Positions 742 to 41,285 of a stretch of DNA of 64,000 nucleotides are shown one piece after another (position 1 is the stretch's first letter; every line of letters starts with the position of its first letter). Made by a program: the position numbers and the translations under genes. The DNA is from Promethearchaeota archaeon (GTDB taxonomy: Archaea; Asgardarchaeota; Lokiarchaeia; Sigyniarchaeales; SOKP01), in contig JAEOTP010000016.1 in the NCBI GenBank assembly GCA_016839765.1, forward strand, positions 4,027-68,026, given 5' to 3'. A model generated the notes under the pieces. It had not been told where the DNA came from, did not search any database, and worked only from the letters and a program-made list of their open reading frames with translations.

Positions 742-771
742 GATTCTTGAAAAATATTCAAGAATCCCCAC
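742..771 (+). other. tRNA-His intron 1 (position 32/33), 30 nt, BHB-type
   Basis: Intron stem ATTCTTGAA/TTCAAGAAT, central helix GGGG/CCCC and 3-nt bulges AC^G and AC^T. Cleavage after the second bulge nucleotide restores the CTGTGAA loop. Confidence 0.88.
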
Positions 772-784
772 TGTGAATCCTTAG

Positions 785-815
785 TGATTGGGGGAATTTC
801 TCTCCTTTCGGGGAA
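785..815 (+). other. tRNA-His intron 2 (variable loop, position 45/46), 31 nt, BHB-type
   Basis: Central helix CCTT/GGGG, bulges AG^T and AA^A, and an imperfect stem GATTGGGGG/TCTCCTTTC. Removal gives a 4-nt AGAC variable loop. Confidence 0.78.
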
Positions 816-961
816 ACGGGGGTTCGATTCCCCCACCGAGCCCTTCTTAATCTATAATTTCTATTTTTTGTTTTAAATTTAAGTATAATTACATAAAATG
901 GAAGATTAAAATCTGTAGAATTATTTTCTTATATAACTGATACTAATTAATATTTGTAATT

Positions 962-1417: not shown

Positions 1418-1439
1418 ACTTCATTTTTATTAAGGTAAA

Positions 1440-23775: not shown

Positions 23776-24303
23776 TTGGTAATTGTTAACATTATATGTC
23801 CGATATGTAAAAAGTGTAAGGGTATCAATATTCCCGAGTTCATAAATCCTCAAAAATCACATTTACTTACCATCTCAATACCAAAAGGAATGATTTGTGA
23901 ACATCATTTTCAGGTATTTGTAGACAAAAACTATAACATTCGGGGATACCAAAAAGTAGACATCGAATTAAAAAATAGTGTTATTAATAGAGATTTGGAG
24001 GACCATGACATATCAAAGCACTTCACAATTGAAGATAATCTTATTAAATTTGATCCAAAATCTATTAATTACAACAAGGAAGACGCTTTAGAAATAGAAG
24101 ATAAATTTGATAAGAATAAAGTGATGTCTCTAAAAGACATTTATAATGAATTTTGGGAATTTATTGATAATAAAAATTCCTTTTTCAGTGAGTTTATAAA
24201 ACATGATAAAAGAAGAAAAATTTCAGACCTAGAAAATGAGAATTTGAATGTTAAGGATTTTATCTTGAGTCTCGAAAATGAAATCCAAAACAATAATCCC
24301 TAA
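23776..24303 (+). CDS. Hypothetical protein with N-terminal Cys/His zinc-binding motif
   Basis: ICPIC ... IPKGMICEHHFQVFVDKNY.IRGYQKVD. Confidence 0.65.
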   Translation: MVIVNIICPICKKCKGINIPEFINPQKSHLLTISIPKGMICEHHFQVFVDKNYNIRGYQKVDIELKNSVINRDLEDHDISKHFTIEDNLIKFDPKSINYNKEDALEIEDKFDKNKVMSLKDIYNEFWEFIDNKNSFFSEFIKHDKRRKISDLENENLNVKDFILSLENEIQNNNP

Positions 24304-24501: not shown

Positions 24502-25656
24502 ATGAATATCGGTGGATTAATTAAAAAAGAGTTTGGAAGAATTAAATCTGATAAAAGAACTTTAATTTTATTATTTGTTATTCCCGTTATTCTAATTATC
24601 ATATTTGGTCTTACTACTGGAGTAGGGCCAACTAAATTTTTTACCGCAGCAATTATAACTCGGGATGAGATGCCTACTTATGATAATTTTCCCACAAATT
24701 CATCTCAATTTGACGATATATTTATATCAATTATGCAACATAATACAACCACTTGGGATCTTCATCAATTTTTTAATTGCACTAATTTAGAAGATTATGA
24801 TAATGCTTTTGACAAATGTATTCAATTTATTAAAAACGATATTGTGGATGCGTTTATTGTGTTACCTGAAAATTTCTCTGAATCTGTGGAAAACAAAATA
24901 AATCCAGTAGTAATTTATTACATCGATGGTTCAGATATGACTGCTACTAGTTCAATTGAAGTAGCCATCCAAGAACCAATTGCGCTATTTAGAGTGCAAG
25001 CTGATTTACTCGAAAATTTCACAATTATGGTTCCTTATTTAGAATTTGATGTTCCATTCTGGGAATCCCAATTATTAAATTATGCTCTACCCATGATTCT
25101 TCCAATAATAATACTTGGTACTACAATGAATCTAACCTCTCTCTCTATTGTATCCGAAGGTCCCTTACCTAGGATGCTGATTACTCCAACAACAAAGAGG
25201 GAAATTATTTTAAGCAAATTAATAGCAAATACAGCAATCATGATCCTCCAATCTACTGAAATTTTTATAATGTCAGCATTTTTCGGTCTTTATAGCCTTG
25301 GCTCCCTCTTCAATTTATATTTAGTTCTTATTATGATTGGTTTTTGTGGTATTTGCATGGGATTGTTTATATCTGCACTTAGCCCAACAGAACAAGGAGC
25401 AAATCAAATGTATCTCATAATGTTCATCGTTATAATTATGTTTTCCGGATCCTTTATACCACCAGAGCTAATTTCACCAGAGATGCAGTATGTTATTAAT
25501 ATACTTCCCTTAAGTCATGCTTTTCCTTTAGTAACGGACATAATATTAAAGGGTTTAGGGCTAAATTTAGAGCATGTATTAGTTCTGAATCTCAATTCCG
25601 TAATTTTTGTACTTTTAGCTTATGTAATTTATCGATTTAAAAAGATTGAGGTGTAA
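24502..25656 (+). CDS. ABC-2 type permease with extracytoplasmic loop
   Basis: GLIKKEF..IK.DKR, single N-terminal TM, ectodomain, five C-terminal TMs, R.LITPT.KREIILSK, FSG.FIP and ILPLSH. Confidence 0.9.
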   Translation: MNIGGLIKKEFGRIKSDKRTLILLFVIPVILIIIFGLTTGVGPTKFFTAAIITRDEMPTYDNFPTNSSQFDDIFISIMQHNTTTWDLHQFFNCTNLEDYDNAFDKCIQFIKNDIVDAFIVLPENFSESVENKINPVVIYYIDGSDMTATSSIEVAIQEPIALFRVQADLLENFTIMVPYLEFDVPFWESQLLNYALPMILPIIILGTTMNLTSLSIVSEGPLPRMLITPTTKREIILSKLIANTAIMILQSTEIFIMSAFFGLYSLGSLFNLYLVLIMIGFCGICMGLFISALSPTEQGANQMYLIMFIVIIMFSGSFIPPELISPEMQYVINILPLSHAFPLVTDIILKGLGLNLEHVLVLNLNSVIFVLLAYVIYRFKKIEV

Positions 25657-26893
25657 GACAATAGGATCCAGAAGAAGAGCCAAAAAGTTAAGACCTACCA
25701 CAACGAAAAAAAAAAGTATTAAATTACGAGGCTCTTTGTATAGAATTATTCGCCAAATTAAAAAGGAGTTTAAGCTTCTATGGACAGATAAATTCAATTT
25801 AATTCTTGCAATTATTATACCCCCTGTAGTTATCCTCCTCTTTGGGTCCATGTTAAATGCCATACCTCCAACACCCCAGCCTGTTCCATGTGTGGTTATT
25901 TCTTATGATTCTAATACCATTATAAATCCAAATAACTATACAGAATCACGAATAAATAATTATACCATCCCCTACGTGAACGCAGTAAATAAATCAGAAT
26001 TATTAAAACTAGAGCATTTTTATAATGCAAGTGAGGAAATCTACGCTATGGAAACCGCAAGGATGCAATTAATCTCTGGAAAAATTAAGGTAATAATTTC
26101 AATCCCCACAGATTTTTCAGAGTTCATTATATGGGGGCTTCCAGCATTAATTGATTGTATTCCTGATTCTTCAGATGTTCAACATATTCAAGATAATTTA
26201 AATGCGGTATATGATTCTGTGAAGATTTTTATAAATGAGAATAACTTAACTCCGCAATTTATAATCCAAGGTTATGAAGAATTTGCAATACCAGAAGGAT
26301 ATAGTCTTAGATTTAATTATAATGCAACTTTATTACTTTCCTTTATAGCATTTGGCGTATCGATGGTTTTAACAATTCTAGTTGTTGTTCAAGAAAAACC
26401 TGTAGCAAGATTATTACTTACTCCTGTAAAAAGAACTGAGATACTCCTTTCGAAATATTTTGCCTATATGCTTGTTTTAGTTCTCCAAATAATATTGTTA
26501 ATTATTAGCACTATGGTATGTGGATTATATCTTGTAGGAAGTTTATTAAATTTCTTTTTAGCTCTTTATATAGTAGGATTTAGTGGTTTATCAATGGGAT
26601 TGTTTATAAGTAGTATAAGTAAAACAAAAACAGAAGCAAATCAGTTATTTTTTGCTTTTATGATTGTTATTTTATTACTTAGCGGGATTTTTATTCCTAT
26701 TGATGCCATGCCGATATATCTACAAGTATTTGCTTACATACTACCTTTATCCCATGGAGATCCTATGATAAAAAGTGTAGTGACAAAGGGTAAATCTGTA
26801 TTTGGATTTGATTTTTATGTACTTCTAGGCATAAGCTTCCTTTTTCTTATAATATCTTTTATAATATTTAAAAAAAGGAGATACGAGGTGTAA
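25646..26893 (+). CDS. ABC-2 type permease (second subunit); likely true start ATA 25661
   Basis: KKEFKLLWTDK, RLLLTPVKRTEILLSK, LSGIFIPID.MP and ILPLSH. GAGGTG (25648-25653) lies 7 nt before the in-frame ATA at 25661. Confidence 0.88.
   Translation: MRCKTIGSRRRAKKLRPTTTKKKSIKLRGSLYRIIRQIKKEFKLLWTDKFNLILAIIIPPVVILLFGSMLNAIPPTPQPVPCVVISYDSNTIINPNNYTESRINNYTIPYVNAVNKSELLKLEHFYNASEEIYAMETARMQLISGKIKVIISIPTDFSEFIIWGLPALIDCIPDSSDVQHIQDNLNAVYDSVKIFINENNLTPQFIIQGYEEFAIPEGYSLRFNYNATLLLSFIAFGVSMVLTILVVVQEKPVARLLLTPVKRTEILLSKYFAYMLVLVLQIILLIISTMVCGLYLVGSLLNFFLALYIVGFSGLSMGLFISSISKTKTEANQLFFAFMIVILLLSGIFIPIDAMPIYLQVFAYILPLSHGDPMIKSVVTKGKSVFGFDFYVLLGISFLFLIISFIIFKKRRYEV
25648..25653 (+). promoter_or_regulatory. 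Shine-Dalgarno GAGGTG embedded in the last codons (Glu-Val-stop) of the upstream permease
   Basis: The same GAGGTG recurs at 26885, 27902, 31077 and 36017, each 4-7 nt before a downstream start. Confidence 0.6.
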
Positions 26894-26905
26894 GATATAA
26901 GCTCA

Positions 26906-27895
26906 TTGATTCCAAAAAGACCAATGGTTGAAGTTAATAATTTAAATGTAATTTTTGGTAAGGCACATATAGTTCATAATGTTTCGTTTACAGTAAATGA
27001 AGGCGAAGTTATAGGGTTATTCGGAATTTCGGGAGCAGGAAAAACAACAATTATAAGAGTTTTAACATGTCAAATTGATAAAAAGAATTGGAATGGTAAT
27101 GTACGGGTTACAGGTTTATCCCCAGCAAATAAAAAAAACCATCCCAAAATTCTTAGTAATATTGGCTATGTTCCTCAACTTGAACTATTAAATTTATATT
27201 TTGAATTAAGCCCCCTAGTGAATGTAGAAGTATTTACTTCTACTTATGGAATGTCAAAAAAACAAGCGCGAAGAATAGCTAAAGAATTATTTGAAATCTT
27301 AGATATCCCAAAGGATACTTGGAAGAAACGAGTAAAACATATGAGTGGAGGAGAAAAGAAAAGACTATCTATGGCTATTGGTTTAATTCATAATCCAAAT
27401 GTTTTATTTCTTGACGAACCCACTACTGGCGTTGATGCCTCTAAACGCTACGATATTCTTAGCTATTTGAAGAAGCTTAACAAGAAATTAAAAACCACGA
27501 TGTTTATAATCACACATGACTTAGAAGCCGCATTAATATGTGATAAAACTGCAATATTGCGAGAAGGCAAATTATTAGAGTTTGAAACACCCCAAAAATT
27601 AATTTTATCTTTACCAAGTGAGGGTTTAGTTGCAAGATTTACAGTTGAAAATTTAAATGAAGAATTAATTGATATGATAAAAAAGTTTGAACCGATAAGA
27701 AAAGTATTACGAGTAGGAAATGAGGTTATTGAGATTTTGATGGACGATTTTGAACAAAATTTACCAAATCTTATACAATTCTTAATTAATAAAGGTATCA
27801 AAATTAAATCAATGAGTAGGGATATAGCCAGTTTTAGGAGGTTCTTTCAAATTAGGATTCAAGAAGAAGAGGAAAAAGAAAAAACTTTAAATTAA
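26906..27895 (+). CDS. ABC transporter ATP-binding protein; possible start ATA 26897
   Basis: Walker A GISGAGKT, Q-loop GYVPQ, signature MSGGEKKR, Walker B LFLDEPT and H-loop ITHD. Confidence 0.95.
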   Translation: MIPKRPMVEVNNLNVIFGKAHIVHNVSFTVNEGEVIGLFGISGAGKTTIIRVLTCQIDKKNWNGNVRVTGLSPANKKNHPKILSNIGYVPQLELLNLYFELSPLVNVEVFTSTYGMSKKQARRIAKELFEILDIPKDTWKKRVKHMSGGEKKRLSMAIGLIHNPNVLFLDEPTTGVDASKRYDILSYLKKLNKKLKTTMFIITHDLEAALICDKTAILREGKLLEFETPQKLILSLPSEGLVARFTVENLNEELIDMIKKFEPIRKVLRVGNEVIEILMDDFEQNLPNLIQFLINKGIKIKSMSRDIASFRRFFQIRIQEEEEKEKTLN

Positions 27896-27911: not shown

Positions 27912-30900
27912 TTGATTATAAAACTGAGCCGAACGGGTAAAAGAAGACTAAAAAATTTTGTTCTCTTACTTCTTCTTATTGGAACTCCAATCTTCACCTT
28001 CATTCTTGTAAACACTCGCTTTATTTCATATATTGATGAAGAAAGTGTGGAATATGTCAAAAGAAATGCTGCCTTATTTACAAAGTCCCATCAAAATGAT
28101 GACGGATTATTTTTAGAACCAGACTTAGATACTAATTTTAGAGCCATTGATTCTATTAATTTCACCCATGTGAATAATACAGATTCTCGTTTAATAAATC
28201 CCAACAATTTAAGAAATGATTTAATTAAAAAACTGGCCCCAAATTTCTTTTTCGACTACATATTTGAAAAACAAAATATTAATGGAGCCTATTCAGATAT
28301 AGGTGGTTTAGGGAATATGATTTCTACCTATGAAGCAATAAAAACAATTGAGGTGGCAAATAAATCTTACCTTAATCGTAAAATAATGGAAAATAAAACA
28401 ATCGAAATTATTAATTATCTAAATGATTCATTGAATGGAAATGGGTTGGGATTTAAGGTTGCTCCCCTTTTGAATTATTCGGACATCATCTCAACATCTT
28501 ATGCAATTGAATTAGCCCAAATTCTTTCGGGAGCTTCGATATTAAATAATAAAAATATAAGTAAATATATAAATTCTACATGGGTAATAACAGGGGGGTA
28601 TGCTTTGACTAATTTCTCCTTAATTCCTACTCCTGAAACCACTTTTCATGGAATTCGAGCATATATTGGCATGAATATGACTTATGATAATGCGAGTGAA
28701 TTTGCTATTTCATCCTATATTAACTCATCATATAATATGGATGGGGGTTTTAGAAATAGTCTTGGGCTGATTTCTGACATTGAATCAACATATTACTGTT
28801 TAGCATCTTTAGATTTATTAAATTTACCTATAATTAATGAAAATACTACTCTTAATTTCATTTTAAATTGCAGTAATCCAGACGGAGGTTTTAGTCAGCA
28901 TCCAGTTTTTACAACACCATCAGACTTTAATTATGGTTGGGCTGCAATGAAAGCCTTATCAATTTTAGAAAAATTATATAACTTTACACCCAGTATTGAA
29001 AATAGAATAAATGAAATAAAACTTAATTATTATAACTGGTTGCATGATCACCAAGCAATAAATTCTTTATTTGGTCATATCACTTTAGAATATAATTATT
29101 TTGGAGTTTTAGCATTAAGAAATTATAGTCCTGAAAATCTATATGAATGGATTAATACCACACAGACCGATAATATATTAGCTTATGTTTATAATTGTTA
29201 TAATATAGAGGATGGTGGCTTTGGTTCAAGACCGGATTTAAATTCTACTCTTTTTTCAACGTATTGTGCCCTGAATTTAATCAACTTTATTGAACCGTAT
29301 GAGTTAAATCAATTTCACGAGCAAAATAAATCAAAAACCATACACTATTTAGTAGGTCTCCAAAATCCTGATGGAGGTTTTAGAGTCGGAAATGATATTG
29401 ATTTTTTACTTTCCTTATTCGGCCCGTATTATAACTATTTCCTAAATTTAATCAATACAAATGTTTCTATGGTGGAAAGTACGTATTGGGCATTAATTTC
29501 GCTTGACATACTTCAAAGTAGTCATTTAATTGATCGAAATAACCTTTCACATTGGATAAAATCATGTCAAAATCCAGACGGAGGTTTTTCAATTTTTATT
29601 GGATTTCATAGTGATATAATCTCTACATATTTTGGTCTTGAAATATTTAACCAATTTTTTTCTTCTGAACCAATGGCCAAGATTGCTGTAATTGAATTCT
29701 TAAAACTTGCGCAAATGTCTGATGGAAGTTTTTCAATATTACCCGCTATAGGTCAATTCATAGAATTACCATCAACATTTTTAGTTACATATTTAGCGTC
29801 TAAGGCTCTCTACGATTACCGTTTTCAACCAGAAGATATTCAAGGAGCATTAAATTGGTATAGAGAATGCATAAGTGAAACAACTGGGGGTTTTGGAGAT
29901 AACCCGGGTTTTGGAGGAGATTTAAGAAATGCCGCTTATGGAATAGTTATAATTGATGAACTAAAACATGATCAGGCTTTTGATTCTAAACCATGGAATG
30001 ATTTGTTATTTTATATTCTTATTGTTGAGCTTATAGGTTTCGGATTATTTATCTTATTGAAGTTATATCAGAGGCTTTCTATTCCACAGAGGATAAAATT
30101 ATTATTTGGAATAGGAGAAAAGTTAACTCCGTCATACCTGCAACAATTTCCTGCTATAAACTGCGAAAATTTTAGTGTATATGCTGGTGGGACATTGATA
30201 GTTGATTCAGTATCAATGAGTATATCGCATGGTAAAATTCTTGGCATTCTAGGAGAAAGTGGAGCTGGGAAGTCAACATTTATAAAGGGTTTACTAGGTA
30301 TGAGAAAAACCACAGGATTTTGCCAAATTTATGGAATGAACATGAGTAAGAGAACATCAAAAAGAATACGACCCATTTATGGTTATGTACCTCAAGATTT
30401 GGGAAAACTTTATCATAATTTCACCACTTTAGAAAATTTATTATATTTTGGGAATCAATATGGATTGACTGAAAAAGAGATAATAAGTAAATCTAAAAGG
30501 ATACTGAGAAGCTTAGATATTGAAGACAAGATGCAAGAATTAGTAAAAAATTTATCTGGGGGCGAAAAAAGGCGAGTTAGTATTGCTATTGGTTTGACAC
30601 ATTCCCCAATTTTTCTTATTTTAGATGAACCAACTTCTGGATTAGATCCAATAATAAGGGAGAGTTTATGGCTAACACTTACAAAAATTAATGAGCAATT
30701 TAAAACCACACTAATAGTTATCACACATTATCCAGAAGAATCGCGTTTTTGTAATGATGTAGCAATTTTCGGGAGAAAACGGGGCATGATTGATTTTGGA
30801 AAGCCAAAAGAACTGCTAGATCAATTACCAGGGAAAGGACGCTCAGTGGAGCTACAGTTTTATAAGCCTATTGAAAATGCCATAGAATCGCTTGAATCTA

Positions 30901-31103
30901 TTGAAGGCATCGAAAAGGTTTTAGAAAATAAGGTTGGAACAAATTTTTCAATCTTTACCAACTTAAATGTAAATGAATTATTTAATAAAATAGAAAATGT
31001 AATTGGTAACGATTCTGTTCAATTATTAAAACAAATAGATTCAAAGATGGAACAATTCTTTAGATATAAAGCTATGGAGGTGCCTAAAATTGAAAAGCTT
31101 TAA
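27912..31103 (+). CDS. Fusion: TM - prenyltransferase/squalene-cyclase-like alpha/alpha repeat ectodomain - TM - ABC ATPase
   Basis: About eight (C/Q)xNxDGGF-type repeats with ..STY.AL helices between two TM segments. The NBD has GESGAGKS, LSGGEKRR, LILDEPT and ITHY. Confidence 0.85.
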   Translation: MIIKLSRTGKRRLKNFVLLLLLIGTPIFTFILVNTRFISYIDEESVEYVKRNAALFTKSHQNDDGLFLEPDLDTNFRAIDSINFTHVNNTDSRLINPNNLRNDLIKKLAPNFFFDYIFEKQNINGAYSDIGGLGNMISTYEAIKTIEVANKSYLNRKIMENKTIEIINYLNDSLNGNGLGFKVAPLLNYSDIISTSYAIELAQILSGASILNNKNISKYINSTWVITGGYALTNFSLIPTPETTFHGIRAYIGMNMTYDNASEFAISSYINSSYNMDGGFRNSLGLISDIESTYYCLASLDLLNLPIINENTTLNFILNCSNPDGGFSQHPVFTTPSDFNYGWAAMKALSILEKLYNFTPSIENRINEIKLNYYNWLHDHQAINSLFGHITLEYNYFGVLALRNYSPENLYEWINTTQTDNILAYVYNCYNIEDGGFGSRPDLNSTLFSTYCALNLINFIEPYELNQFHEQNKSKTIHYLVGLQNPDGGFRVGNDIDFLLSLFGPYYNYFLNLINTNVSMVESTYWALISLDILQSSHLIDRNNLSHWIKSCQNPDGGFSIFIGFHSDIISTYFGLEIFNQFFSSEPMAKIAVIEFLKLAQMSDGSFSILPAIGQFIELPSTFLVTYLASKALYDYRFQPEDIQGALNWYRECISETTGGFGDNPGFGGDLRNAAYGIVIIDELKHDQAFDSKPWNDLLFYILIVELIGFGLFILLKLYQRLSIPQRIKLLFGIGEKLTPSYLQQFPAINCENFSVYAGGTLIVDSVSMSISHGKILGILGESGAGKSTFIKGLLGMRKTTGFCQIYGMNMSKRTSKRIRPIYGYVPQDLGKLYHNFTTLENLLYFGNQYGLTEKEIISKSKRILRSLDIEDKMQELVKNLSGGEKRRVSIAIGLTHSPIFLILDEPTSGLDPIIRESLWLTLTKINEQFKTTLIVITHYPEESRFCNDVAIFGRKRGMIDFGKPKELLDQLPGKGRSVELQFYKPIENAIESLESIEGIEKVLENKVGTNFSIFTNLNVNELFNKIENVIGNDSVQLLKQIDSKMEQFFRYKAMEVPKIEKL

Positions 31104-32793
31104 AATGAGCGAACTAGAGCGCCTTAGACTAAAAACTTTAGACGCTATACGCTTTTCTAAACGATTTTGGATGACATATAGGGAAAATACTTTTGGAATT
31201 GCCTCTATTATAAATTTAGTTTATAAAAAGTCTTTTTTTGAAGTTTTATTCTTTACAAATAAAGATGTTCTAGAGAAGGGAGTCCCTTTATTAAAAATTT
31301 ATACTCCTATCGAAGAGCAAATAGATTTTGATGAAATCATAGTAGAACCTGATTTTGATGATGATGGACTTGTTAGTCCGGTGAAAATCATCGGTCGAAT
31401 GAGAAAGCTTATAAGAAGAGAGTTTCAGAAACATTTAGCATTCTTGGATAAAGAAATAGAACTTCTTGATGAAATATATGAAAATTTCCCCATAGATAAT
31501 ATTCCTTACCATAGAGAAATAGGCATTTATTTCCCTGATTTTGTAGTAAAGCTTAACATAAATTTTGAAAAATTTCCATCTATTCCTTCCTTTTCTTTTT
31601 CAAAAACTCTTTCAAGAATTGTAAGTGAAAGAGAATTTAACGAATCTGCTATTATCACAGACTGGAATGAATTAAACCCACCTCATATATATGAGTTAGT
31701 AGAAAAATTAACTCAAATTGTAACCGATCGTTTAAAAGTAGAACCTATAAAATTTAATTCTCAACACCTTGTGGTTGATAATTTTTCAATAGGGGGTAAT
31801 ATAAAAGACATCTCATTTAAGATCCATAGAGGTAAATCAATAGGGATTGTTTATGATAAAGAATTGTTCGAGAATGCGGAGCATAGTTTGACATTATTAA
31901 AACTTTTTGAGGCTATATCAGGTGAACATCCTAATTTTTCAGGCAGAATTGAGATCTTTGGTAGATATGTTCAATTATTACCCGCATATGATATGGAGAG
32001 AATTTTTATCTTACCCCAAGCTTATGAGTCAAAATTAACTAAAATGAAGCTTAAAAAAGCAGTTCAATATAGTATAGATATTAAGGGTATCCTTAAAGAA
32101 AGAAAAGTTGCTTTGGATAAGGTTTTAAAAAATGCAGGATTAACTTCTAAAATGGGAGATATCGTGAATGATCTTCTTACAGAAGCACCTCTTTTACAAT
32201 TTACTCGGAGGAAAGAATTTATTAAAAATGCTTTAACAGCCACGGGTTTGTGGAATAAAAAGAAAAAAAGATTTTCTCAATTAACACCTTTAGAATTTTT
32301 ACTATTTTCAATTGGAAGAGCATTGCTTCAATCACCTATAATTGTAATGTTTTCAATACCTTTTGGATTACTTAATAGAATAGACTTTGAGAAATTCAAC
32401 AAATATATGAATCGCATAAAAGAAGTATTCCATATAATACTTATTTTTCATGGCCCAGAAGGAATTGCTTCAAAATGTGATCAAATTCTAACTGTTTCTC
32501 AAAGTGTATCTAAAATAGGAACCCATGAGGACTACATCAATGCACTACCATATGCGGGTGAATATATTACAGTTGAATTCAATAATGCAGATGAGAATTT
32601 AATTAAGAAAATAAATGAATTCGAAGAAGTTAATAGAATAATTGAAGAAAGGAAAAATGAAAAATATAAGATATACATAAAAGAAAATCCAGATAAATTA
32701 ATAATAAATTTAACAGAATTGTTTGGAGCAAATCTTTTTAGCTTCAAAATTTCAAAAGCATCAATAGGTGATTATTTAGAATTTAACCAATAA
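31090..32793 (+). CDS. Degenerate ABC ATPase with N-terminal RWD/UBC-like region
   Basis: The NBD scaffold is recognisable (ISFKIHRGKSIG, FSGRIEIFG, ILPQ, SIGRALLQSP), but Walker A GK, LSGG and Walker B DE are lost. The N-terminal region has KLNINFEKFPSIP ... WNELNPPHIYELV. Confidence 0.7.
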   Translation: MKSFKMSELERLRLKTLDAIRFSKRFWMTYRENTFGIASIINLVYKKSFFEVLFFTNKDVLEKGVPLLKIYTPIEEQIDFDEIIVEPDFDDDGLVSPVKIIGRMRKLIRREFQKHLAFLDKEIELLDEIYENFPIDNIPYHREIGIYFPDFVVKLNINFEKFPSIPSFSFSKTLSRIVSEREFNESAIITDWNELNPPHIYELVEKLTQIVTDRLKVEPIKFNSQHLVVDNFSIGGNIKDISFKIHRGKSIGIVYDKELFENAEHSLTLLKLFEAISGEHPNFSGRIEIFGRYVQLLPAYDMERIFILPQAYESKLTKMKLKKAVQYSIDIKGILKERKVALDKVLKNAGLTSKMGDIVNDLLTEAPLLQFTRRKEFIKNALTATGLWNKKKKRFSQLTPLEFLLFSIGRALLQSPIIVMFSIPFGLLNRIDFEKFNKYMNRIKEVFHIILIFHGPEGIASKCDQILTVSQSVSKIGTHEDYINALPYAGEYITVEFNNADENLIKKINEFEEVNRIIEERKNEKYKIYIKENPDKLIINLTELFGANLFSFKISKASIGDYLEFNQ

Positions 32794-32809: not shown

Positions 32810-33613
32810 ATGTTTAAGAGTCTTTATATTATGGATGAAAATGGAATTGTTTTATATTCTAAAAATTTTATGAGAGAGAAGTATGATGATAATATTTTAG
32901 TAGGATTTTTCGCATCAATCGCTAATTTTAGCAGGGAAGCATTAGGAAGTGTAATTAAAAACGTTGATTTAGGACAAAATAATAAGCTTATCTTACTTCC
33001 CATCTCAGAAGAAAATCTACTAGGAGCTGTAATTGTTAGTTCAAATGATAATAACCAGTTAATTTTAACTATTTTAAGAGATATTTTACAAGATTTTATT
33101 GATACTTTCGCTCCAGATTTCGATCCTGAAAAAATTTTTGAGGAGGAAATGGAAAAAATAATCCAAAATAATATGAAAGGTAAAATAATGCAATCACCAA
33201 AAATTAGATTTTTACTTGCTTGGTTAATTGCGGCACCATTATCGTATCTACTTATTTTTTTAAGTATTTTCGCTACGGATTTTCTTTATTCTATTTTTCG
33301 GCTGAACCAATATTTAAATCCTGCCCAAATTTTAACTCGCTTTACGCCATCCTTAATTTTATTATCAACAGTAAATATAGTCATACTATTTCTGCTTCCA
33401 AACTTAATCCTTGGGTATCTTTCTCCCAATTGGAAAATCGCTACAGTAAATTCTTTTATACATTTGGCGGTTACAATAACGTTATATTTCTTTTCTATAG
33501 AACCTAACTTTGCATACATAATTGTAGGATACCTCCCCTTAGCGTTAATTTTTTCATTGTTCTTCCTTTTCATCGGTATTCGTTATTCTTCAAAAAAATT
33601 CTTAAAAAAATAA
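32810..33613 (+). CDS. Longin-like domain fused to multi-pass membrane domain
   Basis: KSLYIMDENGIVLYSKNF ... LVGFFASIANFSRE ... IKNVDLG longin pattern followed by about four TM helices. Confidence 0.7.
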   Translation: MFKSLYIMDENGIVLYSKNFMREKYDDNILVGFFASIANFSREALGSVIKNVDLGQNNKLILLPISEENLLGAVIVSSNDNNQLILTILRDILQDFIDTFAPDFDPEKIFEEEMEKIIQNNMKGKIMQSPKIRFLLAWLIAAPLSYLLIFLSIFATDFLYSIFRLNQYLNPAQILTRFTPSLILLSTVNIVILFLLPNLILGYLSPNWKIATVNSFIHLAVTITLYFFSIEPNFAYIIVGYLPLALIFSLFFLFIGIRYSSKKFLKK

Positions 33614-33778: not shown

Positions 33779-36028
33779 TTGAGCAATAAAAATCTTAAGT
33801 TGGACTTTAATGTCGGAAATTATAAGTCTATTTTTAATACTATACCTACTCCCACTTATATCTGGAAAGTAGATAATGATGATTTCAAATTAATTGATTG
33901 TAATAAAGCAGCAGAAATTATTACTGAAGGAAAAATTTTAGATTATTTAGGTTTAAGTTTAATAGACATATATGATGAAGATTCTGAAGTCTCTAAGGAT
34001 CTAAAAAAGTGTTTTTATGAAAAAATTAATTTTTCAAAAGAAATGCTTTATAAATATAAGAGTACTGGTAAACAGAAGGTTCTTTATACAACCTATAACT
34101 TTATACCACCGAATCTTGTTATTGTCTTTACAGAAGATATCAGTAAACAAAAAGAAGCAGAAAGTTTATTGAAAAAGACTGAAGGCGAAAAATCTATAAT
34201 ATTAGAAAGCATTTCAGAGCATATTGTTTATCAAGATTTAAATAATAGAATTATCTGGACAAATAAAGCCGCAGCAGATTCAGTTGGTTTAACTAGCGAT
34301 CAATTAATTGGAAAAAAATGTCATAAGATTTGGAATAACCGTGATGATAAATGTCCTGGTTGTCCAGTTATTTCTGCAGTTGAAACTTGTAAACCGACTA
34401 TGGCAGAAATGACTACTCCAGATGGCAGAGTATGGTTAGTTAAAGGATTTCCCGTTTTTGATGAAAAAGGAAATGTTATAGCCGCTGTTGAAATCACTAA
34501 TGAAATTACAAAGATTAAACAGGCTGAAGAAAAATTAAAAGTTTCAGAACTACAATATCGTAATACAATTGATTCAATGGGCGATGCTATACACGTCATT
34601 GATAAAGATTTAAGACTTATTCTTATTAATCCAGCAATTATAAGATGGCTTGAGGTTTTAGGTTTACAAACCGATGTTATAGGTAAAAAACTAAATGAGG
34701 CCTTTCCTTTTTTACCTGAAAAAGTTCTTGATGAATACAAACAGGTATTAGATTCTGGAGAAACCCTTATTACGGACGAGGAGACTTTTATTAAGGGAAA
34801 AACTTACTGTACTGAATCTCGAAAGATTCCAATAATTAGTAAGGGAAAGATAAATCAAATTGTAACTATTGTCCGTGATTTTGGTGAAAGGAAAATCTCT
34901 GAGCAAAAATTAAAAGCATCAGAAAAAAAGTTTCGTCACCTTTTTGACACTTCTCCTTATGGCATAGTATTGTTAGATCTTAAAGGCGATATAATCGATT
35001 GTAACACATCTACAAATAGGTTTTTATCAAAACATACGATAGATGATTTGATTGGTAGAAATTTTAGAGAAATTTGGTTCATTCATGAAAAAAACAAAAA
35101 TTTAATATCTTTTTTCGAAAACATAATTGAAAGAGTAATAAATGGTGAAAAGATTAAAAATTTGGAATTCCCTATAAATAGATCACTTGGAGGTATAATT
35201 TGGGTAAATAGTAGTATATCATTGACAAAGTTAGGAGACGAATCATTAATACAATTCATATTAGAGGATATTTCAGATAAAAAAAAAGCTGCAACCGAGT
35301 TAAAAGAATCAGAAAAAAGATATCGTGAAGCTTTTAATCGTTCTAATTTTTATAAGGATCTTTTCGCTCATGATATAAATAATATTTTTCAAAATATTCA
35401 ATCATCCTCTGAATTACTCTCTTTATTATTAGATGAAATGAATATTACTAAAGGAAATAATTTTGTAGATATTATTAAAGATCAAATTATTAGAGGCTCA
35501 ACTTTAATTTCAAATGTAAGGAAACTTTCAGAAATTGAAGAAATTGAATCTCCATTGAAAAAAGTTGAATTATTTGGAGTTCTTAATGAAGTTAAGAATT
35601 ATATCATTAAATCCTTTCAAAATAGAAAGATTAATCTTGAAATTCTCTCTGATGAAAAGCAAATATTTGTTAATGCAAATGAGATATTACCAGATGTATT
35701 TGAAAATATTTTAATTAATGCTATAAGATATAACCAAAACTCTTTAATAGAATTAATGATAAGGGTGTCTAAAGACATTTCTGATGGAAAAAATTTCATT
35801 CGAATGGAATTTATCGACAACGGTATCGGCATTCCAAATGAAATGAAAGAAAAAGTTTTTCAGAGAGGTTATAATCACAGGGGTATTATTAAGGGCTTGG
35901 GGCTGGGATTAACACTTGTAAAGAAAGTAATTGGAATTTACAATGGACAAATTTGGGTCGAAGATAAAGTTATTGGTGATTACACTCAAGGAAGTAAATT
36001 TATATTATTAATCCCAGAGGTGGAGTAA
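33779..36028 (+). CDS. Cytoplasmic multi-PAS sensor histidine kinase
   Basis: About four PAS repeats, H-box FAHDINN, N-box FENILINAIRY, DNGIGIP and GLGLGL; no TM segment. Confidence 0.93.
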   Translation: MSNKNLKLDFNVGNYKSIFNTIPTPTYIWKVDNDDFKLIDCNKAAEIITEGKILDYLGLSLIDIYDEDSEVSKDLKKCFYEKINFSKEMLYKYKSTGKQKVLYTTYNFIPPNLVIVFTEDISKQKEAESLLKKTEGEKSIILESISEHIVYQDLNNRIIWTNKAAADSVGLTSDQLIGKKCHKIWNNRDDKCPGCPVISAVETCKPTMAEMTTPDGRVWLVKGFPVFDEKGNVIAAVEITNEITKIKQAEEKLKVSELQYRNTIDSMGDAIHVIDKDLRLILINPAIIRWLEVLGLQTDVIGKKLNEAFPFLPEKVLDEYKQVLDSGETLITDEETFIKGKTYCTESRKIPIISKGKINQIVTIVRDFGERKISEQKLKASEKKFRHLFDTSPYGIVLLDLKGDIIDCNTSTNRFLSKHTIDDLIGRNFREIWFIHEKNKNLISFFENIIERVINGEKIKNLEFPINRSLGGIIWVNSSISLTKLGDESLIQFILEDISDKKKAATELKESEKRYREAFNRSNFYKDLFAHDINNIFQNIQSSSELLSLLLDEMNITKGNNFVDIIKDQIIRGSTLISNVRKLSEIEEIESPLKKVELFGVLNEVKNYIIKSFQNRKINLEILSDEKQIFVNANEILPDVFENILINAIRYNQNSLIELMIRVSKDISDGKNFIRMEFIDNGIGIPNEMKEKVFQRGYNHRGIIKGLGLGLTLVKKVIGIYNGQIWVEDKVIGDYTQGSKFILLIPEVE

Positions 36029-36029
36029 T

Positions 36030-36410
36030 TTGACTTCAATTTTGATTGTAGAGGATGACATATACCTGCAAAAATTATATGAAATGATGTTAAAAACCCA
36101 AGGATTTAAGATAATTGGCAAAGCAGGGAATGGCTCTGAAGCAATTAATATTTTTAAGGCTCTACGAAATAAACCTGACATTGTTTTGATGGATCACAGA
36201 ATGCCCATTAAAAATGGAATCGATACTACTCTCGAACTTACTAGATTAAATTCTCATACTAAAATTATATTTATTAGCGCAGATAATTCCGTGAAAAAAC
36301 AGGCGCTCTCAATTGGAGCAAAGAGTTTTATTGAAAAACCGTTCAGTATTGATCAACTAAATAATGTAATTAAGAAAGTTATAGAAAACTCTAAAGTTGT
36401 GAATAATTAA
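36030..36410 (+). CDS. Stand-alone response regulator (receiver domain)
   Basis: ILIVEDD, PDIVLMDHRMP (phospho-Asp), ISA and KPF. Confidence 0.95.
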   Translation: MTSILIVEDDIYLQKLYEMMLKTQGFKIIGKAGNGSEAINIFKALRNKPDIVLMDHRMPIKNGIDTTLELTRLNSHTKIIFISADNSVKKQALSIGAKSFIEKPFSIDQLNNVIKKVIENSKVVNN

Positions 36411-36613: not shown

Positions 36614-38122
36614 TTGGTTAAAAGGTTAAGGTTTATGAGCTATAAATTAGCAGATGAAAAAGATTTAGAAGCTATGATTGGTATTGTGGGAAAAGATTAT
36701 GCTACCAATAACAAGGCAATTACAGCGTCATATCTTTCCAAATCTGTAATGGGATTAGAGTCACAAATTCCTGATATCGTCATACGCCCTAAATACGTAG
36801 AAGAGATTCGTAAAATACTACTTTACTGCTCTGCAGAAAAAATTGCAGTCTCACCGATTTCAGCCGGACTATCTGGCGGTTTTGCGTGTCCGACTATTAA
36901 GCCTGCTGGAGTTATGCTTGATTTAGGTAGAATGAATAGAATTATCGAAGTCGATACAGAAAATCGATATGTCGTAGTCGAACCGGGAGTCACGATTGGA
37001 GAGCTGTGGGCTTACATGCACAAGAATTATCCAGAGTGGGCGCCTCCCGTACCAGACGGTGCTCCACCAGCTTCTACCGTAATGGGTGATGCTATCGATC
37101 GAGGGTTTTCCCTTTACACTAGTTCCGTTGGTCCACAAGGTGATAATTTTATGTGCGGTGAGATAGTGTTTCCAAATGGAGATATTGTGCGAACCGGTTC
37201 TTGGGCTCTTCCATTTGCGAAACCGTTCTATAAATACGGACTAGGTCCAGATATCTGGTCCTTTTTAATGGGTTCACAAGGAGCTCTAGGCGTAATGACT
37301 AAAGTTGCAGTTAAAATATATCCACATCCAAAATTTAAGACTGTAGTTGTGTGGGGCATGTCCAATCCTGAGGATATGCAGAACTTAACACTTGAAATTG
37401 GAAAACAAGAATTTGGAATTGCACACAACACCGTTATGGTTCAAGGTGGGAACTATCCATTAGTAATGACACGTTGGCCAAAAGATAAAGTTCCTCACGA
37501 TTATGAATTCTACGAACAGCTAGGAATTAGTAAGTGGTGGATGAATTGGGAGTGCTGGGCACAAACTCAAGAAGAGTTAGATTATGTGGTTAATAGAATC
37601 AATAAAATGGCTGAAGATTTTAAGAAAAATAGAGCTAAAGATCCTGATGGTATAAAACCTCAGGAACTACATCCCAAACAAATCGCAAGCAGATTGAAGA
37701 AACCCAATAAGATTGCGATTCCTTATTCATTCTGGGAGGCAGGATTTTTATTCATTACGTTCTATACACCATGGAACGAATGCGCCCATTTTGCTGAAAT
37801 GTACTGTAAAGCTATGGAAGATCGAGGATTTCCACCAGTAATGTGGATTGCTAGTATTGAGCGTTGTAGGCAAGCAATTTGTATGCCAATTATTTGTTTC
37901 GATAGCACAAAACAATCAGATTTCGAAAAAGTTCAAGAGATGAATAGAGAAACAACAGAATACGCGCTTAAGCAAGGGTGGTTGAATTATCGTCCAGATC
38001 CATACATCCATGCACCTCTCACTTATTCTCAAGCAGGAATGTATTGGAAATATTTGAGGATGATGAAGAAAATGTTTGATCCTAATATGATAATGCATCC
38101 CGGAAGACTTGCTCTTCCTTAA
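36614..38122 (+). CDS. FAD-binding oxidoreductase (GlcD/VAO superfamily); likely start ATG 36636
   Basis: PDIVIRP, MLDLGRMNRIIEVD, VEPGVT, G.IVRTGS, GPD....MGSQG..GVMT and FDPNMIMHPG. Confidence 0.9.
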   Translation: MVKRLRFMSYKLADEKDLEAMIGIVGKDYATNNKAITASYLSKSVMGLESQIPDIVIRPKYVEEIRKILLYCSAEKIAVSPISAGLSGGFACPTIKPAGVMLDLGRMNRIIEVDTENRYVVVEPGVTIGELWAYMHKNYPEWAPPVPDGAPPASTVMGDAIDRGFSLYTSSVGPQGDNFMCGEIVFPNGDIVRTGSWALPFAKPFYKYGLGPDIWSFLMGSQGALGVMTKVAVKIYPHPKFKTVVVWGMSNPEDMQNLTLEIGKQEFGIAHNTVMVQGGNYPLVMTRWPKDKVPHDYEFYEQLGISKWWMNWECWAQTQEELDYVVNRINKMAEDFKKNRAKDPDGIKPQELHPKQIASRLKKPNKIAIPYSFWEAGFLFITFYTPWNECAHFAEMYCKAMEDRGFPPVMWIASIERCRQAICMPIICFDSTKQSDFEKVQEMNRETTEYALKQGWLNYRPDPYIHAPLTYSQAGMYWKYLRMMKKMFDPNMIMHPGRLALP

Positions 38123-38144: not shown

Positions 38145-39569
38145 ATGGCTAAAACTGGAATGGAAAGATTAAAAGAATTAGAGAAGGAAATATATAAGTG
38201 TATTCACTGTAAAGCATGTAGATTTGCTTATTCGGGAGAGCCCAGTAGAGAAGGGATAGGGGAATATACAGGTAAACAGGGTACAGTTCTTTATGAAGGA
38301 ATGGTTGACGCATGTCCAGCTGGAATAGAATACGGTTGGGAAGCGTTTTGGAACGCCGGTAAAATTTGGATTGCTCGTTCAATTTTAAGCGGAGATTTAG
38401 ATTTTTCTGATGAAGTAAGGGATGTTATAATGCCTTGTATTACTTGTGGACAATGCAGTGCTCAATGTGATAATAAAATTCCAACTGTTGATATTATCGA
38501 ATCATTACGAGCAGCATGTAATGAAGCGGGTATTCCAATGATAGAAAAGCATGAATTAGTGGATAGGCTTGTAAAGGAACTCAATAATCCTTACGGTGGA
38601 AAAGCTGCAGAACGCTTTAAATGGGCAAAAGATGCCGGATTAGAGAAATTTGTTGATAATAAAGAAGCAAAAATTGGCTACTATGTAGGTTGTACTGCAT
38701 CATACCGTCAAGTGGAAGTCGCAATAGCAACTGCGAAACTTTTTGAAATGTTGGGCATCAACTTTACTTTAGTTGGTGATGAGGTATGTTGTGGAAGTCC
38801 TTTCTTTAGAATAGGAGCTGTTGACACTGCACAAGAACTAATGAACAAAAATCTCGAGGCTTTTAAAGGTTTAGAAATGGTTTACTTCAGTTGTGCTGGA
38901 TGTTATAGGACAATCACTTTAGATTATCCAAAATGGATGCCTGAGGGTTCCAAACTACCTTTCAAAACACAACACGCATTTGAATTAGTCACTCGATTAA
39001 TCCAACAAGAAAAAATCAAATTCAAGCCAAATAAAGAGTTAAAAGGAAAGATAGTTACCTATCACGACCCGTGCCATACTGGTCGTCATTTCGGAGTTGA
39101 TTTTGAGCAAGAACTTATCAAACAAAGCAAGAATTTAATGTTCGATATGAGAAAAATCAAAGAGAAAATTGATAAATGGTTTGAAATTCCAAGAATTATT
39201 CTTAGAAAGCTTGAAGAGGATGTTGGAATCGAATTTAGAGAAATGTATCGTATAAAACTGAATAGTATGTGCTGTGGGGCAGGTGGTGGTGTCCGTGCTG
39301 GATATCCTGATTTCTCAATACGCACTGCTAGTTTACGATGTGATGAAGCAAATGCAGTAGAAGCAGATATTTTGACAACCGAATGTCCTTTTTGCTGGAG
39401 GAATCTAACGGATGCTAATGAACTATACAATCATGGCATGAAAGTTATGGGTGTTTTACAAATGATTACTGAATATAATTTATTAGAAATCTTAGATAAT
39501 CCGACTGAAAAAGATTTCTTGACCTCCTCTATAAGGGAACTTGAAGCAGATTCCGAAAAGAAGAAATAA
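38145..39569 (+). CDS. HdrD/GlcF-like Fe-S protein with two CCG domains (intronless paralogue of 12118-13414)
   Basis: CIHCKAC...CP, CITCGQCSAQC, VCCGS, CAGC, YHDPCH, CCGAGGG and ECPFC. Confidence 0.92.
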   Translation: MAKTGMERLKELEKEIYKCIHCKACRFAYSGEPSREGIGEYTGKQGTVLYEGMVDACPAGIEYGWEAFWNAGKIWIARSILSGDLDFSDEVRDVIMPCITCGQCSAQCDNKIPTVDIIESLRAACNEAGIPMIEKHELVDRLVKELNNPYGGKAAERFKWAKDAGLEKFVDNKEAKIGYYVGCTASYRQVEVAIATAKLFEMLGINFTLVGDEVCCGSPFFRIGAVDTAQELMNKNLEAFKGLEMVYFSCAGCYRTITLDYPKWMPEGSKLPFKTQHAFELVTRLIQQEKIKFKPNKELKGKIVTYHDPCHTGRHFGVDFEQELIKQSKNLMFDMRKIKEKIDKWFEIPRIILRKLEEDVGIEFREMYRIKLNSMCCGAGGGVRAGYPDFSIRTASLRCDEANAVEADILTTECPFCWRNLTDANELYNHGMKVMGVLQMITEYNLLEILDNPTEKDFLTSSIRELEADSEKKK

Positions 39570-39776: not shown

Positions 39777-41285
39777 ATGAAAAAGAAAAAAGCAATTGCG
39801 ATTATTGCTGCTTTAGTTATTGTAGCGGGAGTAACTACTACGTTACTGCTGGTATTTCTATTTCCCAGTCCAGGAGTATATACAGGTCAAAGGAAAGCAT
39901 TAATCTGCTGTAGTGCAAATGATTTTTTTGGTTCAGAACCTGAGGAACCATTTAATGATGGACATGATTCTAATTTAAATAACATTATTAAAGATGAAGG
40001 GAATTGGTCATTTACTAATATAGAAAATTGTTTAGGACAACATACTATGCTTGAAGCTTATGAAGGGCCTCTAAATGGCAGTTTGCTTATGAAAGCTATT
40101 ATAGATGGACCATTCTCAGGGATTTTTTCTCTTAATTGGACACAATCTGGTTATACTCTTTATGAATATGCTTATTATAATATTTCAGCCATGATTAAAA
40201 TTATAGATACAGGAGGATTAATAGGTAAGGGGGCTCGAATTGGATTACAATGGCTGGATTCCGATGGAGATGTAACTAGAACTGACTGGTCAAATTATAT
40301 TAATAATACAAATTCAGAATGGGCATTTTTAAATTCTACAGGAGTTTGCAATAATGAAACAGGAAAAGAAATAACGGAATTAAAACTTGTGTTATGTGTA
40401 AATTTCACATTATCTATTGCTTTAACAGATTATATTTTCTTTGATTACATCAAAATAGATAAGTGGGTTTTAGTAGATTTAGACAATCCTACTGATCCTG
40501 GTACTCCTCCTCCGCCTCCAGGCATAAATTCAGATGGATTCCCTGCTCAGGCATTACAAGTATATTGGATATTGAAAAATCATGGTTATACAGATGAAAA
40601 TATCTTTTTGATGTTATATTATAAGGATGATGCAGATGGAATTATTGATATTAAGTTAGGTGGTAAACCAGATGATTTAGTTGGTGCAGTTATTGATTTA
40701 GCTAATAACAGTGTAAATGCTACAAGTTTCAAACAAGAGTTAAATGTTTCTTATGCAGGTTCTTTTGCTTCCACCATACAACCACAAGATTATCTAATTA
40801 TATATATGTGTGATCATGGTTCAAATAAAATACCTGGTCAAGCTCCCAATGCTACATTCCATTTTGAAGCGGATAATAGTTTTATTACAGAATTAGAATT
40901 TTATAATTTAGTTAAGCAAATAAATTGTCAGAGAATAATGATAAATGTAGATTGCTGTTTTAGTGGTAATTTTCTAAATCAAAATATTGTTGGTCAGAGC
41001 TGGTATGATATTGAAAATTGTATCATGGTTAGCGCTTCTTCGAATTTACTTGCTTGGTATTATATAAATAATAAAAATCTTGATGGATTTGCAGGTTCCT
41101 GGTTCTTTCATATGTTTTGGGATGCGTTAAATCAGTCTGCGACTATTTACGATGCTTTTAATCATGCCAATATCTGGCCTCCAGCTGCTCGTGGAATGCC
41201 ATTATTTTTGATTCAGAATCCAATGTGGGATGATAATATGGGTATTAATAAAACATTAAGCTTCGATAGCGATCCTCCATTATAG
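39777..41285 (+). CDS. Membrane-anchored C13 (legumain/GPI8-like, caspase-haemoglobinase fold) peptidase with inserted beta-sandwich domain
   Basis: N-terminal TM; GYTDENIFLMLY, catalytic His in IYMCDHGS and Cys in VDCCFSG. Confidence 0.75.
   Translation: MKKKKAIAIIAALVIVAGVTTTLLLVFLFPSPGVYTGQRKALICCSANDFFGSEPEEPFNDGHDSNLNNIIKDEGNWSFTNIENCLGQHTMLEAYEGPLNGSLLMKAIIDGPFSGIFSLNWTQSGYTLYEYAYYNISAMIKIIDTGGLIGKGARIGLQWLDSDGDVTRTDWSNYINNTNSEWAFLNSTGVCNNETGKEITELKLVLCVNFTLSIALTDYIFFDYIKIDKWVLVDLDNPTDPGTPPPPPGINSDGFPAQALQVYWILKNHGYTDENIFLMLYYKDDADGIIDIKLGGKPDDLVGAVIDLANNSVNATSFKQELNVSYAGSFASTIQPQDYLIIYMCDHGSNKIPGQAPNATFHFEADNSFITELEFYNLVKQINCQRIMINVDCCFSGNFLNQNIVGQSWYDIENCIMVSASSNLLAWYYINNKNLDGFAGSWFFHMFWDALNQSATIYDAFNHANIWPPAARGMPLFLIQNPMWDDNMGINKTLSFDSDPPL

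Follow-up and report, generated by a model that had tools for sequence, protein, structure and literature searches.

How does the ATPase of an ABC (ATP-binding cassette) system come to carry a large domain on the far side of the membrane, and what might that domain do there? In known ABC transporters the ATPase subunits are cytoplasmic, and domains lying outside are part of the permease or of separate accessory proteins; we know of no case in which the ATPase chain itself bears one. The question is raised by a 64,000-nucleotide stretch of contig JAEOTP010000016.1 (assembly GCA_016839765.1, positions 4,027 to 68,026 of the forward strand) from a Promethearchaeota archaeon, the whole of which is referred to here as the window. 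Its plus strand holds an open reading frame (ORF) at 27912..31103, the longest in its neighbourhood, which begins with TTG, has a Shine-Dalgarno-like GAGGTG 5 nucleotides (nt) 5' of this start and encodes a protein of 1063 residues. The original prediction, made from the letters of the window, read this protein as an extracytoplasmic prenyltransferase/cyclase-like toroid joined across the membrane to an intact ABC ATPase, and proposed for the toroid a role as an isoprenoid-binding acceptor or modifying domain coupled directly to the transporter motor. We find that the fusion of a prenyltransferase-like toroid to an ABC ATPase across the membrane is real and conserved.

The proposed order of parts (an N-terminal transmembrane segment, TM1; a large ectodomain; a second transmembrane segment, TM2; and a nucleotide-binding domain) is confirmed by the ORF, by hydropathy, by Pfam and by structure prediction. 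The Pfam search that had been suggested as a check placed Prenyltrans (PF00432, E=2.9e-37) in three stretches between the two transmembrane segments and ABC_tran (PF00005, E=1.8e-25) over residues 765-909, after the second; both assignments are far above chance. The full-length AlphaFold model, built from an alignment of 68 sequences with a mean pLDDT (predicted local distance difference test) of 86, shows in turn a helix at residues 7-34 (TM1), an all-helical region at 36-690, a helix at 693-721 (TM2), a low-confidence segment at 723-737, a classical ATPase fold and a C-terminal alpha/beta domain at about 980-1055.

Across independent assemblies, over 160 protein clusters show the same architecture, with identities of 27-92%. 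When 5.8 billion proteins were searched by a word index, 161 relatives came back; the 120 that were listed are nearly all of about 1000-1067 residues, combine PF00432 with PF00005 and share 50-92% identity. An exhaustive phmmer search with the ectodomain alone against 1.84 billion cluster representatives gave 578 matches, about a dozen of them end to end and all of these in proteins of 1040-1153 residues. Prenyltrans and ABC_tran are both present in nine of the nine end-to-end relatives scanned, and both transmembrane segments are kept in all ten that were checked. Shorter strong matches stop at a protein end in the manner of fragments, and no stand-alone full-length ectodomain was found among the representatives. 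Separate halves in the relatives, which the original prediction had named as the mark of a chance fusion, are thus not what these searches returned. Matches weaker than about E=1e-28 are made only repeat by repeat, to proteins of other architectures. Such are the secreted Prenyltrans-repeat proteins of prokaryotes (P0143, P0146-P0154), which share with the ectodomain their multiple Prenyltrans/SQHop repeats, their length and a non-cytosolic appearance, but which match it in three to seven stretches (E>=1e-28) rather than end to end, and have collagen, Ig-like or TED-like partner domains in place of an ABC domain.

Every listed relative from the protein search that bears an organism name is an Asgard archaeon, labelled Promethearchaeota/Lokiarchaeota, Thor-, Hermod- or Hodarchaeota, and the named distant relatives of the ectodomain are likewise Asgard. 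Scanning one genome per GTDB species for two peptide patterns from a five-sequence alignment, a procedure biased to closer relatives, found at least 29 loci, which among the matches listed were all in Asgard-labelled or unlabelled archaeal genomes; a nine-sequence alignment of the ectodomain held no stretch conserved enough for a scan of this kind. Within the databases searched, the fusion and the gene cluster around it are seen only in Asgard archaea. Full-text literature searches found no description of either, and the names that databases give the relatives, such as 'prenyltransferase/squalene oxidase repeat-containing protein', are derived from the domains only. As a side observation, the cluster at locus L007 (JBHLPZ010000016.1), from a genome labelled Candidatus Odinarchaeota, shares 88-97% protein identity with that of the window, as do the clusters of Promethearchaeia-labelled genomes; the label of this genome, or its binning, is probably wrong.

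Just two segments of the fusion protein, residues 15-33 and 698-716, pass the Kyte-Doolittle threshold. Across 68 relatives the mean net charge is +2.0 before TM1, -1.6 after TM1, -2.1 before TM2 and +3.5 after TM2, a family pattern that obeys the positive-inside rule and hence places the N-terminus inside, the toroid outside and the ATPase inside. The same follows from the fact that the ATPase is necessarily cytoplasmic while a single helix separates it from the toroids. The topology of the original prediction is therefore upheld, on the two transmembrane segments and the charges flanking them; in TM2, W695 is invariant in 68 close relatives. The N-x-S/T sequons that it also pointed to are indeed denser outside (2.2 against 1.0 per 100 residues), but relative to shuffled composition they are enriched 2.0-fold in the cytoplasmic ATPase and 1.6-fold in the ectodomain, and three sequon positions (N753, N836 and N880) are conserved within the ATPase domain. 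We therefore rejected sequons as evidence on topology, for which their counts in an AT-rich genome are a poor guide.

The 657-residue ectodomain is all helical. As the ATPase domain dominates the Foldseek matches of the full-length model, the ectodomain was modelled alone for the fold search (78 sequences, distant relatives included), with a pLDDT of 93.3 and a pTM (predicted template modelling score) of 0.92. On this model it is predicted to have an alpha/alpha toroid fold of the prenyltransferase/cyclase type (background on toroid fold superfamilies: PMC12324236). Foldseek against the PDB returned first Rab geranylgeranyltransferase (RabGGTase), geranylgeranyltransferase III (GGTase-III) and the beta subunit of farnesyltransferase (FTase), with E-values from 7e-10 to 1e-6 and a probability of 1.0 for RabGGTase and FTase beta. 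The superposition on FTase beta (1ft2_B) spans 316 columns with a root-mean-square deviation (rmsd) of 4.3 A; those on squalene-hopene cyclase (SHC, 1sqc) and oxidosqualene cyclase (OSC, 1w6k) span about 750 columns, with a query-normalised score (TMq) of only 0.41-0.42 and an rmsd of 12-13 A, and drimenyl-diphosphate synthase is also among the matches. The assignment made by the original prediction, to the toroids of FTase/GGTase beta subunits and squalene-hopene cyclases, accordingly fits the model. The family profile run against PDB sequences agrees, matching RabGGTase beta at E=2.4e-28, FTase beta at E=2e-16, GGTase-I beta at E=5e-11, drimenyl-diphosphate synthase at E=8e-11, SHC at E=2e-3 and the complement C4 thioester domain at E=0.66.

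Where about eight repeats had been claimed, comparison of the model helices with the sequence gives 12 units, each of an outer helix, an xNxDGGF-type bridge and an inner helix, with a strict DGGF-like motif in seven. One toroid of the prenyltransferase/cyclase superfamily consists of six helix-hairpin units, so that 12 repeats suggest two toroids in tandem; this division comes from the repeat count and from Foldseek, not from coordinates. The two halves are weakly alike (BLASTP E=2e-6). The C-terminal, membrane-proximal half is the better conserved, at 0.71-0.78 against about 0.6 in the N-terminal half, and matches RabGGTase beta in the PDB by phmmer at E=9e-19. The last repeat bears a family-specific motif, GGxGDxPxFGGDLRN, with invariant residues D663, F667, G668, D670 and N673, of which D663, F667, G668 and N673 are invariant in 78 sequences. 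Q553 and Q601, nearer the N-terminus, are family-invariant as well.

On the inner side of the membrane, the nucleotide-binding domain has the full set of catalytic motifs that the original prediction claimed for it, including a Q-loop at Q828, and among 68-120 relatives each of them varies little or not at all. Its best NCBIfam models are DrrA (E=7.9e-45), RbbA and NodI; the NCBIfam matches of the fusion ATPase and of the neighbouring proteins fall below the curated equivalog cut-offs, making the assignment one of family level only. Foldseek with the ATPase part returned TM_1403, ABCA1/3/4/7, CbiO and NosF, the superposition of the ATPase and C-terminal domain on TM_1403 (4yer_A) covering 309 columns with a target-normalised score (TMt) of 0.78. 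By these sequence matches the fusion is placed in the ABC ATPase family and, at family level, among ABC-2 systems.

The original prediction regarded the fusion gene singly; the gene stands as described, and its setting is the fourth place among six tightly packed plus-strand genes, with gaps of -11, 12, 16, -14 and 16 nt. Two permeases come first, each predicted by hydropathy to have one transmembrane segment, an outside loop and five further segments, and both close to RbbA, SagH, NodJ and DrrB. They are followed by a stand-alone ATPase with intact motifs (GISGAGKTT, MSGGEKKR, LFLDEP and ITHD), by the fusion, and by two proteins that we call p567 and p267. This order was kept wherever the flanking sequence sufficed in a tblastn comparison of 33 related loci, down to about 45-50% identity and in Loki-, Thor-, Hod- and Hermod-labelled genomes. 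The protein p567 has no Pfam match and lacks Walker A, the LSGGQ signature and the Walker B glutamate; its family profile matches the MacB ATPase domain (E=1.4e-9) in the region from signature to H-loop only, and its well-conserved N-terminal domain of about 230 residues has no detectable relatives. By eye, the string 'FP.F...L.INFEKYP..P.F.FS' in that domain recalls motifs of E2/UEV/RWD type. For p267 there was no Pfam, PDB or FtsX match; its 145 relatives are all of about 267 residues, and those with a name all come from Asgard archaea. A longin/roadblock identity for its N-terminal domain, which the sequence suggests by eye, is unsupported, as only one of 13 members gave a weak Sybindin match (E=0.03) and none matched the PDB.

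What, then, is the toroid doing outside? The reading that we prefer, and hold tentatively as quite possible, is that the fusion supplies one of the two ATPases in a heteromeric exporter of the ABC-2 (type V) kind and that its toroid is a non-catalytic binding or acceptor module for hydrophobic cargo. Gene order and co-conservation suggest that the fusion, the permeases and the stand-alone ATPase associate. The two permeases and the two complete ATPases would form the transporter core; TM2 would dock beside the permease helices, with the toroids sitting over the extracytoplasmic loops of the permeases and forming a chamber that binds or accepts, without catalysis, the hydrophobic cargo which the permeases push out. 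That cargo would most plausibly be an isoprenoid-based lipid or a polyprenol-linked compound, given that the best-known ligands of the fold are isoprenoids and that archaeal lipids and glycan carriers are isoprenoid too. Since the linker between TM2 and the ATPase looks flexible, the covalent link would serve positioning rather than force, mainly setting stoichiometry and position.

Known exporters offer partial precedents for this exporter-and-acceptor arrangement. The ABC-2/type V exporters (ABCA1/3/4/7, YbhFSR, LnrLMN and NatAB) have in common with the cluster a permease layout of TM1, an extracytoplasmic domain and TM2-6, as well as DrrA-type ATPases with a C-terminal domain, and the cargo of the known exporters of this kind is hydrophobic or lipidic. 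Their outside domains, however, are part of the permease chain, whereas here an additional and much larger one is part of the ATPase chain and has two transmembrane segments of its own; a pseudo-ATPase and a four-segment orphan protein are present here as further accessories. The principle of an anchored outside domain that takes or passes on the cargo of an ABC transporter is also known from LptC (LptB2FGC), MlaD (MlaFEDB) and NosD (NosDFY). Those are separate chains with beta-jellyroll, MCE or beta-helix folds, unlike a toroid attached covalently to the ATPase. By analogy, the large outside domains of the ABCA lipid exporters and LptC, MlaD and NosD would be the nearest functional counterparts. 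The fusion system is probably a new kind of exporter accessory.

Several points weigh against our preferred reading. A toroid fold by itself would not imply isoprenoid binding; the superfamily also holds binders of other things, among them the thioester domains of complement and alpha2-macroglobulin. The aromatic-lined cavity and the two-toroid arrangement are suggested by the repeats and by Foldseek scores only, and the direction of transport is assumed from the type of family to which the genes appear to belong. The linker has a partly conserved motif (consensus LGIGxKL..SYL..FP) and may be more than a passive tether. Despite the missing known motifs the toroid might hold a new active site, and its invariant D663/D670/N673 motif goes unexplained, as do the roles of p567 and p267 in a model of exporter and acceptor.

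An unbroken chain running from the ATPase through TM2 to the toroid is the most direct coupling possible, and it invites a rival account in which the fusion is a mechanotransmission device: the ATP cycle would drive the conformation of the toroid via TM2 and so act on a substrate or partner outside, as in MacB, LolCDE and FtsEX. In its layout of TM1, ectodomain and TM2 the fusion does resemble MacB and FtsX at their first two helices; its gene overlaps the pseudo-ATPase gene, which is followed by the gene for a protein with four transmembrane segments, together making two plus four segments and an ATPase pair; and the part of the ectodomain nearest the membrane is the best conserved. Nevertheless, we judge this account unlikely. 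The original prediction spoke of direct coupling to the motor, which is true in that the chain is unbroken, but the intervening segment of about 15 residues (723-737) is predicted to be disordered, with a pLDDT below 50, so that it is likelier a tether than a rigid transmission element and would transmit force poorly. Furthermore, the permeases of the cluster are of the six-segment ABC-2 type, whereas the type VII systems MacB, FtsEX and LolCDE have an FtsX-type four-segment permease with the ectodomain on the permease chain. The four-segment p267 has no outside domain, limiting the likeness to the TM1-ectodomain-TM2 layout of the fusion. Finally, the pair of fusion and p567 would have no canonical ATP site: neither Walker A nor the signature is present in p567, so that hydrolysis is likelier to depend on the stand-alone ATPase.

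That the toroid is instead an extracytoplasmic enzyme, whether a prenyltransferase or a terpene cyclase of class II, that works on isoprenoid once exported, is suggested by its best sequence and fold matches, all of them enzymes (RabGGTase, FTase beta, drimenyl-diphosphate synthase, SHC and OSC), and by the invariant acidic/amide motif of the last repeat. The residues expected of such enzymes argue otherwise. In a HMMER alignment the zinc ligands of RabGGTase beta (D238, C240 and H290) lie opposite M, E and S in the fusion protein and opposite L, E and S in the family consensus; the corresponding ligands in FTase beta are D297, C299 and H362. Since repeats permit alternative alignment registers, all 12 were inspected at the zinc-ligand positions, and none has a cysteine or histidine there. 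The ectodomain has no histidine conserved among the aligned relatives, and its only near-invariant cysteines, C429 and C653, occupy a generic outer-helix position (xxCxN..DGGF) at which the repeats of RabGGTase beta also have cysteine (SCQ, ACQ). DxDD is absent from the fusion protein, where DLDT in repeat 1 comes closest but is not kept in the family (consensus xIDxN); so is the CGEQ thioester motif. The TED_complement match of Pfam is weak, at E=0.14 in the fusion protein and in three of nine relatives with a best value of 2.8e-6. No gene for a prenyltransferase alpha subunit (PPTA repeats) was found among the neighbouring genes scanned, from 19572 to 41285, the cluster included, and prenyl diphosphate donors are cytoplasmic.

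The likeness to the two enzyme groups has limits of the same kind. The beta subunits of protein prenyltransferases have in common with the ectodomain an alpha6/alpha6 toroid of xxCQxxxGGF-type hairpins and give its best sequence and fold matches, but theirs is a single, cytosolic toroid that works with an alpha subunit and has its zinc ligands, while the fusion has two putative tandem toroids that are extracytoplasmic and membrane-anchored, with an ABC ATPase attached. Class II terpene cyclases (SHC, OSC and drimenyl-diphosphate synthase, with a beta-gamma double toroid) do have two toroids per chain, but the arrangement of their domains fits only loosely and they are monotopic enzymes of the cytoplasmic face, not bitopic ectodomains. 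Judged by known catalytic signatures in its sequence, the toroid would fall outside the protein prenyltransferases, the class II cyclases and the thioester proteins alike. The modifying domain offered by the original prediction is thus disfavored, and we regard an enzymatic role as improbable.

Equally improbable, in our estimate, is a role for the toroid as a ligand sensor or capture module, which, on binding some molecule from outside, would gate the ATPase, whether as a tethered binder for uptake or as part of a sensing ABC system that feeds a signalling pathway. In ABC importers, binding domains may be tethered or fused, and a soluble multi-PAS histidine kinase and a single-domain response regulator (33779-36028 and 36030-36410, both on the plus strand) follow the cluster in the window, one or both being present downstream in about 11 of 33 related loci. 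The kinase, however, has no transmembrane segment, lies 165 nt beyond the cluster and is absent from many loci, and the permeases and ATPases belong with ABC-2 exporters rather than with importers. As for a chance fusion, or an assembly or annotation error that joined a secreted toroid to an ATPase gene, the TTG start and the metagenome-type genome lend it formal support only, and the recurrence of the architecture in independent assemblies, with both transmembrane segments kept and the ectodomain found alone only as apparent fragments, refutes it to the point of leaving practically no chance that it is right.

An ATPase chain that spans the membrane and so bears an ectodomain of 657 residues would be an unusual ABC architecture and provides a handle on how outside domains are positioned in type V exporters; the confidence of the ectodomain model (pLDDT 93) suffices for the direct design of constructs. 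The cluster is also a candidate lineage-specific envelope or lipid-handling system of Asgard archaea, which among known prokaryotes stand nearest to eukaryotes and of whose cell surface next to nothing is known. It is tempting to go further and speculate that all six proteins make up an Asgard-only envelope machine, with an ABC-2 exporter passing its cargo, an isoprenoid lipid or a polyprenol-linked compound, to the motor-welded toroid, and with the pseudo-ATPase and four-segment protein regulating the machine from inside. This extended picture strikes us as rather unlikely in its entirety. If true, it would represent a previously undescribed way to build an ABC lipid exporter, and it might bear on membrane and surface remodelling in the archaeal ancestors of eukaryotes and on the origin of the eukaryotic prenyltransferase-beta fold.

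The coordinates of the cluster genes and of the parts of the fusion protein are collected in Table 1.

Table 1. The six-gene cluster, the adjoining Cys-cluster gene and the parts of the fusion protein, by position in the window (aa, amino acid residues of the fusion protein unless a protein length is given)
Feature	Position	Strand	Description and evidence
Small protein with Cys cluster	23776..24303	+	175 aa; N-terminal CPICKKCKG...CEHH; translation, tblastn
Cluster gene 1, ABC-2 permease 1	24502..25656	+	384 aa; TM1, extracytoplasmic loop of ~150 aa, 5 transmembrane segments; Pfam ABC2_membrane_3 E=2.8e-27
Cluster gene 2, ABC-2 permease 2	25646..26893	+	415 aa; overlaps permease 1 by 11 nt; ABC2_membrane_3 E=2.9e-27
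Cluster gene 3, stand-alone ABC ATPase	26906..27895	+	329 aa; DrrA type (NCBIfam E=1.8e-56)
Cluster gene 4, fusion gene	27912..31103	+	1063 aa; TM1, double-toroid ectodomain (predicted), TM2, linker, ABC ATPase, C-terminal domain
TM1/signal anchor	27954..28013	+	aa 15-34; preceded by basic stretch KLSRTGKRRLK; hydropathy peak 2.43; helix 7-34 in model
Ectodomain repeats 1-6, putative N-terminal alpha6/alpha6 toroid	28017..28976	+	aa 36-355; six outer-helix/bridge/inner-helix units
Ectodomain repeats 7-12, putative C-terminal toroid	28977..29987	+	aa 356-692; motif GGxGDxPxFGGDLRN at aa 659-673; phmmer, conservation
TM2	29988..30074	+	aa 693-721; followed by basic stretch KLYQRLSIPQRIK; hydropathy peak 2.72; helix 693-721 in model
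Linker	30075..30146	+	aa 722-745; low model confidence, residues 723-737 with pLDDT <50; conservation dips to 0.62
ABC nucleotide-binding domain	30147..30851	+	aa 746-980; Pfam ABC_tran E=1.8e-25; motifs invariant in family
Walker A	30252-30278	+	GESGAGKST, aa 781-789; translation
Signature	30552-30575	+	LSGGEKRR, aa 881-888; translation
Walker B	30624-30629	+	ILDEP, D905-E906; translation
H-loop	30726-30728	+	H939; translation
C-terminal alpha/beta domain of ATPase	30852..31100	+	aa 981-1063; ABC-2-type; model secondary structure, Foldseek
Cluster gene 5, p567	31090..32793	+	N-terminal domain of ~230 aa and degenerate ABC ATPase; overlaps fusion gene by 14 nt
Cluster gene 6, p267	32810..33613	+	soluble N-terminal domain of ~125 aa and ~4 transmembrane segments

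The small Cys-cluster protein is loosely associated with the six-gene cluster, which it adjoins, upstream or downstream, in about 20 of the 33 related loci (among them L004, L007, L009-L018, L022, L024, L025, L028, L029 and L033), and it matches no family. A tRNA scan of the window found none, and promoter and terminator scans gave counts at chance level, the consensus being bacterial and uninformative for an archaeon.

Outside the window, two unrelated multi-toroid proteins of prokaryotes, P0143 and P0146, weakly match Pfam Ribophorin_II_N (E of about 1e-6), and these sequence matches hint that a luminal domain of an oligosaccharyltransferase subunit may be akin to Prenyltrans repeats. A link between the fusion family and Ribophorin II was rejected: Ribophorin_II_N does not match the family, nor did the family profile reach it in the PDB.

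Beyond the two-component genes the plus strand continues with a GlcD/GlcF-like pair, a FAD_binding_4 oxidase (36614-38122) and a Fer4/CCG iron-sulfur protein (38145-39569). Most related loci also have this pair downstream of the cluster, with 74-98% identity; its nearness to the cluster may reflect synteny rather than a functional link. A 502-residue protein at 39777-41285 (+) matches Peptidase_C13 (E=5.7e-9), the legumain/GPI (glycosylphosphatidylinositol)-transamidase family, which is better known from eukaryotes. It is followed at 41427-45833 (+) by an ORF of 1468 residues with no Pfam match, rich in Lys, Ile, Leu and Glu, with hydrophobic segments at its C-terminus and situated where the GC content of the window is lowest (about 25% against about 30%). 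Toroid-like strings seen in it by eye had made it a candidate second toroid protein, which was dropped since the family profile does not match it.

At two of the related loci, genes for Arf/Rag-like small GTPases lie a few kb upstream of the cluster, at 453-1658 (-) in L001 and at 1648-2205 (-) in L002. Such GTPases are common in Asgard genomes, so their presence near the cluster may be coincidence.

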